Positions 7,910-56,900 of a stretch of 64,000 nucleotides of DNA are shown here, one piece after another. The position numbers and the translations under genes were made by a program. Source of the stretch: Eledone cirrhosa (lineage: Eukaryota); NCBI GenBank assembly GCA_964016885.1, contig OZ024762.1, forward strand, positions 20,150,001 through 20,214,000, written 5' to 3'. Position 1 is the first letter of the stretch, and each line of letters begins with the position of its first letter. The notes under the pieces are model-generated. The model was not told where the DNA came from, searched no databases, and saw only the letters and a program-made list of their open reading frames with translations.

Positions 7910-8209
7910 GGGAGGGTCATGCTGCCAATAAAAACACATGCACCTGTTAGTTTTCACTTCAATTTATTATAATCTCTCAGTCAGTTTAATAAACAGATAG
8001 TTGTTTAGTTGTTGATTGTCAAAACTCTTCATCACACATTCTGTGACCTTCTTAGTGACTACTTTTCTTGTTATTTTGTGTCTCTCCTTTGTTCTGCCCT
8101 ACACCATCTTGGTTTTTGAGCTGTATATATATATACTATATATATATATATATATATATATATATATACGATATTAAATAAATGGAAACTATATTTATAA
8201 AACCATATT

Positions 8210-8274
8210 TATTTCATTATACATATTTCAAGGATACCAAATTAAAATATGGTATGCCTTCATCAGACAAAATA
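8210..8274 (-). ncRNA. Type I hammerhead ribozyme (family H, left arm)
   Basis: Reverse-complement copy of 8407-8471. Confidence 0.7.
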
Positions 8275-8406
8275 CAATATATAAACAGTTTTATAAATAA
8301 TTTTGACGTACCCTATTAGAAGCGACCATTACTAGACAGCTTCCAAAAGTAATGGTCGCTTCTAATAGGGTACGTCAAAATTATTTATAAAACTGTTTAT
8401 ATATTG

Positions 8407-8471
8407 TATTTTGTCTGATGAAGGCATACCATATTTTAATTTGGTATCCCTGAAATATGTATAATGAAATA
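8407..8471 (+). ncRNA. Type I hammerhead ribozyme (family H)
   Basis: TATTTTGT-CTGATGA-AGGCATACCA...TGGTATCCCT-GAAA-TATGTA-TA-ATGAAATA. Stem I is 8 bp with 2 G-U pairs, stem II is present and stem III is self-complementary. Predicted cut after 8463. Confidence 0.75.
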
Positions 8472-8651
8472 AATATGGTTTTATAAATATAGTTTCCATT
8501 TATTTAATATCGTATATCTACTCCAAAAACTTGTCGAGTGCTTTATATCAGTTATAAAATATTTACTACTTGTTGTATCCCAACAATTTTAAATAGAACT
8601 TTTGCATATATATATATATATATATATATATATATATATATATATATATAA

Positions 8652-8819
8652 CCATATTTCCCGGTGCCGAAGACACTTCGTCCTCGAGGATGCACCCTAA
8701 TTTTGACAACCAAAATTTTGAAAAAAAATAATAAACAACCTTCGGCCTCCAGGACACATGGTAGATTTTTGAGACTTATTTTAGGAAAAAAGTTGCGTCT
8801 TCGATGCCGGAAAATACGG
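8652..8819. mobile_element. Tc1/mariner-superfamily (Tc2-like) MITE
   Basis: TIRs CCATATTTCCCGGTGCCGAAGAC / GTCTTCGATGCCGGAAAATACGG, with TA context. Confidence 0.65.
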
Positions 8820-9544
8820 TATTTAGTTGCAAAGGACTAACTTGGAAGCTTCCAGTCCAGGGTGTTGCACACAATGACTAGATACATAGAGCCGTCTTTG
8901 CCTCATCTTTTCACTGACCTTTGGCAGGTCTCCATAACGGCCCATTACATTCTGAGTTCAAATCCTGCTGAGGTTAGCTTTGGAGCAGTAGGGAGGGTGT
9001 GGCTTTCTGCCCTGTATCGGCAGTCTTATTAATTTTTGACAGTCCGTGCATCCATAACCATAATGAGACTGACTTCCGGAATGGCCTTGAACTGGTGAGG
9101 GAGTTCATGAGTACTTGTAAGTCCATACTGACCCCACCACCACCACCGCCACCGCCACCACCACCATCAACTGTGGCCCCCATCCTGTCACCCCATCCTG
9201 TCACCACATACCTTATTACTATCAGTTCTACATTATTATAATGTAGTTGTCGTAAAGATGTTATGTCACATGGATTTTATCTGAACAGTTAGAAATAACA
9301 AAATAATACGTACTAACACACACACACATATATATATATATATAAATGTATGTGTGTCTGTGTGTGTGCATATATATATATATATATATATATATATATA
9401 TATATATAAATGTATGTGTGTGTGTGCATATATATATATGTATATATATATATATAAATGTATGTGTGTGTGCATATATATATATATATATGTATAGATA
9501 CATATATATTATACATATATATAATTACACATATATGTATATAT

Positions 9545-54608: not shown

Positions 54609-54639
54609 GTTGGTAAATTCTTGTTTGTCTAAATATTTG

Positions 54640-56330
54640 TCTGAGTGTTTGTCTGAGTGTCTGAATATCTAGATGTCTGAGTGTTTGTCAGAGTGTCTGA
54701 ATATCTAGATGTCTGATTGTTTGTCTGAGTGTCTGAAGATCTAGATGTCTGAGTGTCTGTCTGAGTGTCTGAAGATCTAGATGTCTGAGTGTCTGTCAGA
54801 GTGTCCGAAGATCTAGATGTCTGTCTGAGTGTCTGAACATCTAGATGTCTGATTGTCTGTCAGAGTGTCTGAATATCTAGATGTCTGATTGTCTGTCAGA
54901 GTGTCTGAACATCTAGATGTCTGATTGTCTGTCAGAGTGTCTGAATATCTAGATGTCTGATTGTCTGTCAGAGTGTCTGAATATCTAGATGTCTGATTGT
55001 CTGTCAGAGTGTCTGAATATCTAGATGTCTGATTGTCTGTCAGAGTGTCTGAATATCTAGATGTCTGATTGTCTGTCAGAGTGTCTGAACATCTAGATGT
55101 CTGATTGTTTGTCAGAGTGTCTGAATATCTAGATGTCTGATTGTCTGTCAGAGTGTCTGAATATCTAGATGTCTGATTGTTTGTCTGAGTGTCTGAACAT
55201 CTAGATGTCTGATTGTCTGTCAGAGTGTCTGAATATCTAGATGTCTGATTGTCTGTCTGAGTGTCTGAACATCTAGATGTCTGATTGTCTGTCAGAATGT
55301 CTGAACATCTAGATGTCTGATTGTCTGTCAGAGTGTCTGAATATCTAGATGTCTGATTGTCTGTCTGAGTGTCTGAATATCTAGATGTCTGATTGTCTGT
55401 CTGAGTGTCTGAATATCTAGATGTCTGATTGTCTGTCAGAGTGTCTGAATATCTAGATGTCTGATTGTCTGTCTGAGTGTCTGAACATCTAGATGTCTGA
55501 TTGTCTGTCAGAGTGTCTGAATATCTAGATGTCTGATTGTCTGTCAGAGTGTCTGAATATCTAGATGTCTGATTGTCTGTCTGAGTGTCTGAACATCTAG
55601 ATGTCTGATTGTCTGTCAGAGTGTCTGAACATCTAGATGTCTGATTGTTTGTCTGAGTGTCTGAACATCTAGATGTCTGATTGTCTGTCAGAGTGTCTGA
55701 ATATCTAGATGTCTGAGTGTCTGAATATCTAGATGTCTGATTGTCTGTCAGAGTGTCTGAATATCTAGATGTCTGATTGTCTGTCAGAGTGTCTGAATAT
55801 CTAGATGTCTGAGTGTCTGAAGATCTGTCTGTCTGAGTGTCTGAAGATCTAGATGTCTGATTGTCTGTCAGAGTGTCTGAACATCTAGATGTCTGTCTGT
55901 CTGTCTGAGTGTCCGAAGATCTATCTGTCTGTCTGAGTGTCTGAACATCTAGATGTCTGAGTGTCTGAAGATCTAGATGTCTGTCAGTCTGTCTGAGTGT
56001 CTGAAGATCTAGATGTCTGTCAGTCTGTCTGAGTGTCTGAACATCTAGATGCCTGAGTGTCTGTCAGAGTGTCTGAAGATCTAGATGTCTGTCAGTCTGT
56101 CTGAGTGTCTGAAGATCTAGATGTCTGTCTGTCTGTCCAAGTGTCTGAATATCTAGATGTCTGTCTGAGTGTCTGAAGATCTAGATGCCTGAGTGTCTGT
56201 CCGAGTGTCTGAAGATCTAGATGTCTGTCTGTCCAAGTGTCTGAATATCTTGATGTCTGTCTATGAGTGTCTGAATATCTCGATGTCTGTCTGTTGGCAT
56301 ATCTAGATGCCTGTCTGGATATCTAGCTGT
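54640..56330. repeat. Intronic 36-bp minisatellite
   Basis: Unit GAGTGTCTGAATATCTAGATGTCTGATTGTCTGTCA, about 45 copies. Confidence 0.95.
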
Positions 56331-56561
56331 CTCACGGTCTGTCTGAGTGTCTTGATGCCTGTCTGTTTGTCTGAATATCTCGCTGTATGTCTGTCTGTCT
56401 GTCTGTCTGTCTGTCTGTCTGTCTGTCTGTCTGTCTGTCTGTCTGTCTGTCTAGTTGTCTGTTCCACTATCTATCTGTCTGAACATCTAACTATCTGTCT
56501 GTTTCACTACCAGATTGTAAAGGTTAATCTTTATGTCCTTCTTTCTGTATTGAATTTTTAG

Positions 56562-56626
56562 CTTTCTGCTCTTTGGAAGAAGAATCCTTTCGCAGCATTT
56601 TTAAATATAAGAAATATGAGATTCAG
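56562..56626 (+). CDS. Mucin SEA exon 2
   Basis: TTTTTAG|CTT...TTCAG|GTAAAG; encodes LSALWKKNPFAAFLNIRNMRF(S); phases 0 and 2. Confidence 0.88.
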
Positions 56627-56838
56627 GTAAAGACACATACATACATATATACATACATATATACATATATATATATATACATATATACATACATATATAA
56701 GCAAGAAGGGATATTTAATTTGTTGGTAGTTCAACAAATATAAATGTTTATAACTGATTCAGAGCACTCGACAGGTTTTCTGGAGTATAATATTCAATGA
56801 TATTAAATAAATGGAAACTATATTTATAAAACCATATT

Positions 56839-56900
56839 TATACTATTATATATATTTCAAGGGTACCAAAAACTTTGGTACGCTTTCATCAGATAAAATA
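56839..56900 (-). ncRNA. Type I hammerhead ribozyme (family H), intronic antisense
   Basis: Minus strand reads TATTTTAT-CTGATGA-AAGCGTACCAAA-GTT-TTTGGTACCCTT-GAAA-TATATA-TA-ATAGTATA; stem I pairs 7 of 8 bp. Confidence 0.75.

Follow-up and report, generated by a model that had tools for sequence, protein, structure and literature searches.

We analysed a 64,000-nt stretch of the Eledone cirrhosa genome (assembly GCA_964016885.1, contig OZ024762.1, positions 20,150,001 to 20,214,000; hereafter the window) and found that its four type I hammerhead motifs lie in terminal repeats (pLTRs), truncated at their 5' ends, of a Penelope-like element (PLE) that is 4.0-4.3 kb long, carries Hydra-clade motifs and is inserted in (TA)n. 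The hammerhead variant is very abundant in this genome and is missed by Rfam. On balance, we lean towards a reading in which the pLTR hammerheads cut the PLE RNA as a dimer, releasing a unit-length copy that would probably be rejoined into a circle for reverse transcription.

A generic type I hammerhead scan of both strands of the window returned exactly four motifs, at 8210-8274 (-), 8407-8471 (+), 45506-45566 (-) and 56839-56900 (-), compared with a mean of 0.01 sites per window in 100 Markov-simulated windows. A covariance model built from 136 genomic copies, three of which are window copies and hence match by construction, recovered the same four motifs at 75-90 bits (87.6, 90, 80.1 and 75.4 bits, respectively) and otherwise nothing above 21 bits. 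These are the same four motifs that an initial annotation of the window had proposed, and its predicted cut positions, after 8463 on the plus strand and between 45514 and 45513 on the minus strand, agree with our motif parsing. Every window copy is laid out as stem I (8 bp), CUGAUGA, stem II (3 bp, a C.C mismatch, 6 bp and a loop), GAA, an 8-nt palindrome, A, and the returning strand of stem I, and the core C3 U4 G5 A6 N7 G8 A9, G12 A13 A14, A15.1-U16.1 and H17 is present in all four. Judged by sequence, the four motifs are likely self-cleaving RNA.

We searched the 3.0-Gb genome and counted hammerhead copies by exact patterns, so that the counts are lower bounds. A core-plus-stem pattern gave 11,737 matches (control, 0), and the 28-nt flank 3' of the motif gave 39,511 exact matches. 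A pattern that fixed stem I, core and palindrome but not stem II collected 39,361 copies with T at N7 and 14,123 with another base, i.e., at least 53,484 copies with an intact core. Rfam, to which the initial annotation had looked for confirmation, returned no hammerhead row at E <= 10 for window positions 8330-8560 or for a diverged copy (L159, 420-580), and no hammerhead was present among the 150 listed of 317 rows for the whole window.

The link to a PLE comes from the open reading frames (ORFs) between the hammerheads. Opposite-strand hammerhead pairs 3-4 kb apart enclose a truncated reverse transcriptase (RT) ORF, P0001. With P0001 as the query, 77 matches were scored and the 20 with long open frames were examined; seven of these loci have the order hammerhead-ORF-hammerhead on the same strand, with a unit of 3951-4297 nt. 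Full-length copies consist of a pLTR with hammerhead, a 742-aa ORF for RT and a putative endonuclease, a 3' untranslated region (UTR) and a second pLTR with hammerhead. In two of them, L115 and L114, the ORF is uninterrupted (P0002, 742 aa when counted from its first Met, and P0003). The pLTR-ORF-pLTR locus L160, which belongs to another subfamily, has a unit of 3676 nt and 59-79% identity by segment. ORF remnants upstream of hammerheads at L094, L148 and L102 cover the stem type of the copies at 45506 and 56839; in the GUACCA subfamily these remnants lie 1.6-2 kb upstream on the same strand (L102, L094). The Penelope-like origin proposed in the initial annotation, and a linked RT ORF with putative endonuclease motifs of the kind it suggested looking for, are borne out by units found genome-wide.

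Pfam did not recognise RT or GIY-YIG in the element's own ORFs, including P0002; among aligned relatives, RVT_1 was matched in 4 of 33 and Pfam GIY-YIG in 2 of 33. The best fold match of the predicted structure (predicted local distance difference test, 86) was TERT (3du5, E = 1.1e-9). The protein carries RWR at 38, DKT at 119 and YRDD, lacks GxKF/Y, and has a CxCX5C linker (CNCRNKSNC at 602) followed by the C-terminal nuclease motifs YVG at 636 and RFNNH at 647 (YVG..RFxxH). Late in the putative endonuclease stand its sole CxxC (CDLC at 700) and a CxH (CRH at 727); CCHH was scored absent, at what we take to be the expected place of its cysteines. The Hydra clade comprises C-terminal endonuclease-positive PLEs, including Hydra-1_Obim of Octopus bimaculoides, and is defined by an RWK motif, absence of GxKF/Y, replacement of DKG by DKT, a CxCX5C linker, and CxxC with CxH (Craig et al. 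2021, PMC8557442). By its motif set and by its protein, which follows the Hydra alignment in the supplement of that paper as judged by eye, the element is of Hydra type. Insertion in (TA)n and a hammerhead near the 3' end, both characters of this clade, were found, and pLTRs, inverted 5'-truncated copies and a one-ended tail are all present in the element. Neptune, our first label, was dropped, as the protein has DKT and CxCX5C instead of DKG and CX2-5CxxC. Naiad was likewise rejected: our element has C-terminal nuclease motifs and a hammerhead, in contrast to the N-terminal endonuclease and lack of a canonical hammerhead in Naiad. The pLTR hammerhead almost certainly belongs to this Hydra-type PLE.

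Sequence variation among copies falls where a working hammerhead could tolerate it. N7, the free core position, is not T in the 14,123 copies above (26%), and the catalytic G5 is changed in 812 copies (1.5%). In a set of 57 copies picked by the downstream flank alone (7 truncated, 2 with indels, 48 parsed), N7 was T in 25, G in 9, A in 9 and C in 5, and the other 14 core and triplet positions together showed only 6 single changes. Among ORF-chosen copies, of which 43 of 46 were parsed, N7 was T in 30, A in 5, C in 4 and G in 4, with five other changes. Structure statistics were obtained on 136 distinct variants, most of which were picked by patterns fixing part of the core. In these, 93.8% of cells were paired, versus 89.2% in shuffles and 35-55% in slid controls (stem I, 97.1%; stem II, 90.0%), and across the whole structure 198 cells had two-sided changes versus 58.5 in shuffles. 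The compensatory stem changes reported in the initial annotation hold for stem II, with two-sided changes at 7 of 9 pairs, but not for stem I, where variation is almost wholly wobble (1 of 8 pairs two-sided, 6 of 8 with one-sided wobble swaps). The stem II C.C mismatch is near-invariant (203 and 204 of 206) and is C.U in a sister family described below; loop II varies greatly, both in its length and in its sequence. Structural selection of the hammerhead is therefore upheld across genomic copies, and catalysis itself is very probably what is selected.

Stem III is where the hammerheads would need each other. As a monomer it has 2 bp and a 4-nt loop, the 2-nt loop drawn in the initial annotation not being a realistic fold, and 8 bp form only in a predicted dimer, in which the palindrome has no loop. 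The palindromic character of stem III holds genome-wide. Its all-AU composition, noted in the initial annotation, is not constant: about half of all copies have G at the palindrome centre and the sister family has GCGC. At this centre A or G stands opposite U (97 and 109 of 206), and only 275 copies have a pyrimidine there, as expected if the middle two bases pair between molecules.

The sister family shares stem I and AUA and has a longer stem II and an endonuclease that is 36-46% identical. A pattern restricting two of four positions to G or C and leaving the middle two free gave 9,880 matches, and AUGCGCAU was present in 93 of the first 100 listed. AUGCGCAU and AUAUAUAU differ at four bases with the symmetry kept, including the two middle bases that are unable to pair within a strand. 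The replacement of AUAUAUAU by AUGCGCAU with its symmetry intact points to cleavage as a dimer. The GC form of the palindrome has a predicted duplex energy of -10.5 kcal/mol, and no duplex was predicted between AUAUAUAU and AUGCGCAU. A distal extension of stem I would pair across the cut site, with stronger cognate than cross-family pairing for classes A and B. Taking the palindrome data together, we regard dimer cleavage as quite probable. The ends of sister-family insertions fall at two sites of their own, +38 to +53 and +129 to +137 from the cut. This Hydra-type sister family was seen at L183-L194 and L113:1698.

Insertion ends constrain the template. The association with (TA)n extends genome-wide, and 191 distinct flank-carrying copies comprised 101 untailed copies, 77 tailed copies and 13 reading on into the ORF. 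Untailed copies end at +48 to +52 from the cut in 72 of 101 cases, and tailed copies at +136 to +148 in 63 of 77; each of the two end sites is a TATAT/CATAT word that blends into (TA)n. The tail derives from the 5'UTR of the element, and full-length copies read on from it to an ATG 186 nt after the cut. There were 41 head-to-head pairs, reduced to 32 by setting aside 8 with an ORF-running arm and one locus counted twice, and 31 of these 32 loci have one tailed and one untailed arm (P ~4e-9).

The window contains one such pair, at 8169-8605. Its untailed arm (8169-8333, -) holds the 8210-8274 motif, with a predicted cut between 8218 and 8217, and ends about 48 nt downstream of that cut. The tailed arm (8334-8605, +) holds the 8407-8471 motif (A17) and ends about 140 nt downstream of its cut; within it lie the 8-nt self-complementary stem III at 8455-8462 (AUAUGUAU), which is predicted to form an intermolecular helix, the predicted distal extension of stem I (8383-8393, pairing with 8478-8488 across the cut site), and the tail (8518-8605), i.e., the beginning of the 5'UTR. 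The arms form a 173-nt inverted match with one difference before its end, and (TA)n target flanks the insertion at 8124-8168 and 8606-8650. Since the copies at 8210 and 8407 belong to a single insertion, as its two arms, and differ by one base, the window holds three insertion events. The remaining two are solo 5'-truncated pLTR copies of a second subfamily (GUACCA stem), both on the minus strand. One (45463-45633, approximate 5' boundary) is untailed, has (TA)n at 45414-45462 at its 3' end, and carries the 45506-45566 motif with a AUAUAUAU palindrome. The other (56701-56972, boundaries approximate) has a tail at about 56701-56795 and carries the 56839-56900 motif, with one U-U mismatch in stem I and a predicted cut between 56847 and 56846. 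An assembly run of N occupies 7711-7910, some 200 nt to the left of the first insertion.

Cut RNA ends as primers or boundaries of insertions were considered and rejected for 3' ends, as only 124 matches (36 in the control) run into (TA)n at the cut; for 5' ends there was no clear pile-up at the cut in the small sample of flank-chosen copies (2 of 57 within about 1 nt, 3 of 57 within 10 nt). All 13 ORF-reading copies keep 49 to at least 400 nt upstream of the cut, with no fixed start, where upstream length was measured against ORF-linked 3'UTRs up to 400 nt. The cDNA thus always begins downstream of the cut site and crosses it, indicating that the template was either uncut or rejoined. In 8 of 17 ORF-bearing arms, a 5'UTR tail follows the 3'UTR. 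Within an element, each pLTR was the other's nearest match in 6 of 8 cases and tied in 2 of 8 when compared with other sampled copies. A back-joint at the cut was traced to one 60-bp tandem array and does not represent a general class. This array (L195, 1460-1935; G000:C23:484003-484391) has eight hammerhead-only units joined at the palindrome, with N7 alternating between T and G, and sits inside one arm of a head-to-head insertion; it is a possible seed of a retrozyme-like repeat.

The motif and its copy number, the ORF linkage, the pattern of selection and the positions of insertion ends are observed; from these we infer the following sequence of steps. A transcript spanning both pLTRs would pair its two hammerheads via the 8-nt palindrome, and each hammerhead would cut after AUA. 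Ligation of the new 5' and 3' termini could be assisted by the long stem I, which would hold them in proximity. The element protein would nick (TA)n and prime cDNA from a pair of UA-rich internal sites, located roughly 50 and 140 nt beyond the junction and each serving one target strand, and reverse transcription would copy back across the junction. Where synthesis stopped early, the product would be a short end, head-to-head or solo, as in the three window insertions, and more than one lap would produce pLTR-ORF-pLTR. For the template itself we give the circle an even chance and prefer it to uncut linear RNA. That autonomous PLEs copy from a ribozyme-made circle, with a dimer hammerhead, the palindrome as a family-specific pairing code, closure by an extended stem I and two fixed start sites, one per target strand at every insertion, is a more tentative proposal; the idea of a pairing code builds on the predicted failure of the loopless AUAUAUAU to pair with the AUGCGCAU of the sister family.

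Several results weigh against this scheme. For the monomer, another predicted fold is more stable than the hammerhead (-10.2 vs -5.5 kcal/mol; z -0.36 to -2.81), and folding of a single strand yields stem II and some of stem I but not the three-way junction. Predicted duplexes of the AU palindromes are weak (-3.2 and -2.2 kcal/mol), and the stem I extension is not family-specific for class C (-6.1 kcal/mol with itself, -7.8 kcal/mol with B). G10.1-C11.1, the usual type I pair, is quasi-conserved rather than strictly defining; it occurs in 2 of 136 variants here, with A-U in 93, G-U in 26 and no pairing in 15. In 39 of 136 variants, one of the distal pairs of stem II is disrupted. Two of five covariation measures did not exceed shuffles (two-sided pairs, 8 vs 8.2; pair types, 25 vs 27.3). 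The cells count related sequences, which inflates the other measures, and the structure was derived from the same sequences; covariation should therefore be read as support and not as a significance test. In the Poseidon element of anole, hammerhead mutations were reported to be without effect on insertion in vitro, uncut RNA was the main template, no reads ended at the cut, and the ribozyme required protein (PMC11167929). Finally, the patterns seen in the genome would also fit read-through RNA that stays uncut and stems from tailed or tandem parents.

The last two points lead to the strongest rival, which we consider somewhat unlikely: the dimer hammerhead is active, but insertion uses uncut linear read-through RNA, and cleavage serves another step, e.g., by releasing the mRNA from a co-transcript of the host and promoting translation, which would start at the AUG 186 nt downstream. 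The anole work, with internal initiation at two sites and a ribozyme dispensable in vitro, fits this scenario, as do the AUG at +186, the translational roles described for viral 5'UTR type I hammerheads (PMC13725137) and the intact cut site in all genomic copies. It sits less well with the variable upstream pLTR length (49 to at least 400 nt), which shows no fixed start, and with the homogenised pLTRs within one element; moreover, we reason that successive generations could only shorten pLTR and tail if there were neither a circle nor a template jump. Far less probable is that the motif has been retained as a structured signal for protein binding or packaging, or as a promoter element in the DNA, and cleaves little or not at all in vivo. 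Weak predicted folding and the non-canonical 10.1-11.1 pair would suit a signal, as would the poor in vitro cleavage reported for PLE hammerheads in PMC4209133 and the strong conservation of the 40 nt after the motif (the 28-mer with 39,511 exact copies). Yet variation is placed on N7, the sole free core position, where all four bases occur, while G5 is spared, and the core and AUA persist across families whose endonuclease domains are only 36-46% identical. That we are dealing with a short non-autonomous retrozyme or short interspersed element (SINE)-like family, close to the short retroelement family of the initial annotation, is scarcely credible: most copies are indeed short and ORF-less, and none in the window has an ORF, but their 5' ends are scattered, they are colinear with the 3'UTR of full-length elements and are truncated ends of the autonomous 4.0-4.3 kb PLE, they are not tandem repeats of 170-400 nt, and the GUACCA subfamily also has its same-strand ORF remnants upstream.

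As to what PLE hammerheads are for, the one in vitro study, cited above, found the ribozyme dispensable for insertion. Core and palindrome symmetry are kept while the stems changed, over more than 60,000 copies and several diverged families, which argues that cleavage matters in the replicating lineage. The family is useful mainly as a large natural experiment on the role of PLE hammerheads, and its uninterrupted ORFs make the dimer, the circle and the two start sites directly testable. If the circular template proves true, the family is a genome-scale record of PLE copying from ribozyme-made circular RNA.

Other features of the window and genome deserve mention. About 30 nt upstream of stem I, the motif GGTAYGTCA (window 8371-8379 and equivalents) is kept across diverged subfamilies without covariation with stem II, and may be a promoter or protein-binding site; GGUAYGUC as an anti-stem-II switch was rejected, since it showed no covariation and its C variant accompanies a mismatching stem. 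A weak translated match to the C-terminus of P0002 (462-611, -; E = 0.02, 40%) is perhaps an old PLE remnant. A tandem 112-bp repeat (2916-3358), with a single copy at 1095-1190, presumably resembles an octopus SINE. A second (TA)n-inserted repeat family, with a head-to-head, one-tail layout, occupies 1485-1620, 45690-45920 and 57460-57680 and many other loci (e.g., L065, L082, L181); its retained part showed no hammerhead core and no Rfam match, and it is probably the end of another PLE, which we would guess to be Naiad-like. Genome-wide, further hammerhead families have palindromic stem III sequences such as AGTACT, ACTAGT, ACGCGT and ACCACTGGT, among others (L003, L015, L038, L077, L079, L090, L099, L112, L118, L144, L022, L111), and probably come from other PLE families. 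Next to a hammerhead copy, L005:2012-2557 (+) holds an RT fragment of unrelated origin and, after it, a PHD-finger match.

We found no description of this family's ribozyme in the literature searched, and similar variants may be present in supplements, Repbase or Dfam; hammerheads in PLE pLTRs, the AUA triplet, and the tail with its two start sites are already known. With the Hydra clade the element shares the RWK-type motif and DKT, the absence of GxKF/Y, CxCX5C, CxxC with CxH, (TA)n, the 3'-end hammerhead, the inverted truncated copy and the one-ended tail. In contrast, it is 4.0-4.3 kb long with a 1.7-kb 3'UTR, whereas Hydra elements are generally below 3 kb (a typical, not a defining, size), it has more than 53,000 copies, and its stem II has at least 9 bp with a pyrimidine mismatch. 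Of the Hydra rows in File S2 of PMC8557442, all 26 combine GUH with a stem III loop of 1-3 nt, unlike the AUA and loopless stem III seen here, and both hammerhead and protein sequence differ from those of Hydra-1_Obim.

For PLEs, Cervera and de la Pena (2014, PMC4209133) proposed that pLTRs carry hammerheads, that these cleave as dimers and that the template is circular. Those hammerheads are likewise type I, located in both pLTRs, with a long helix II and a palindromic helix III; there, too, single truncated copies are numerous and opposite-strand pairs lie 100-700 bp from each other. Ours differ in having no bulged nucleotide after A9, no conserved G10.1-C11.1 and a longer stem I (8 bp plus the distal extension). 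Poseidon PAc of Anolis (Frangieh et al. 2024, PMC11167929) shares two internal RT start sites downstream of the hammerhead that define the tail, and a template that retains the hammerhead. However, the tail is about 90 nt here and 30-40 in PAc, both sites here lie in the 5'UTR at TATAT/CATAT matching (TA)n whereas those of PAc are not target-homologous, and the ORF here starts 186 nt after the cut rather than inside the ribozyme.

Animal non-LTR retrozymes, for which circular RNA intermediates have been demonstrated, also have a PLE-related type I hammerhead, but are ORF-less tandem repeats of 170-400 nt, unlike the dispersed truncated ends of a coding element found here (PMC7229834; bioRxiv 10.64898/2026.07.22.740005). 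The AUA triplet, which the initial annotation considered unusual, holds genome-wide but is not unique among natural hammerheads: ELVd(+), sCYDV-RPV(+) and cscRNA(-) share it and are reported to be active, although slower than with GUC, and these viroid and satellite RNAs have a stable helix III of 5-6 bp (PMC1636495), in contrast to the stem III of our family, which would reach 8 bp only between two molecules.

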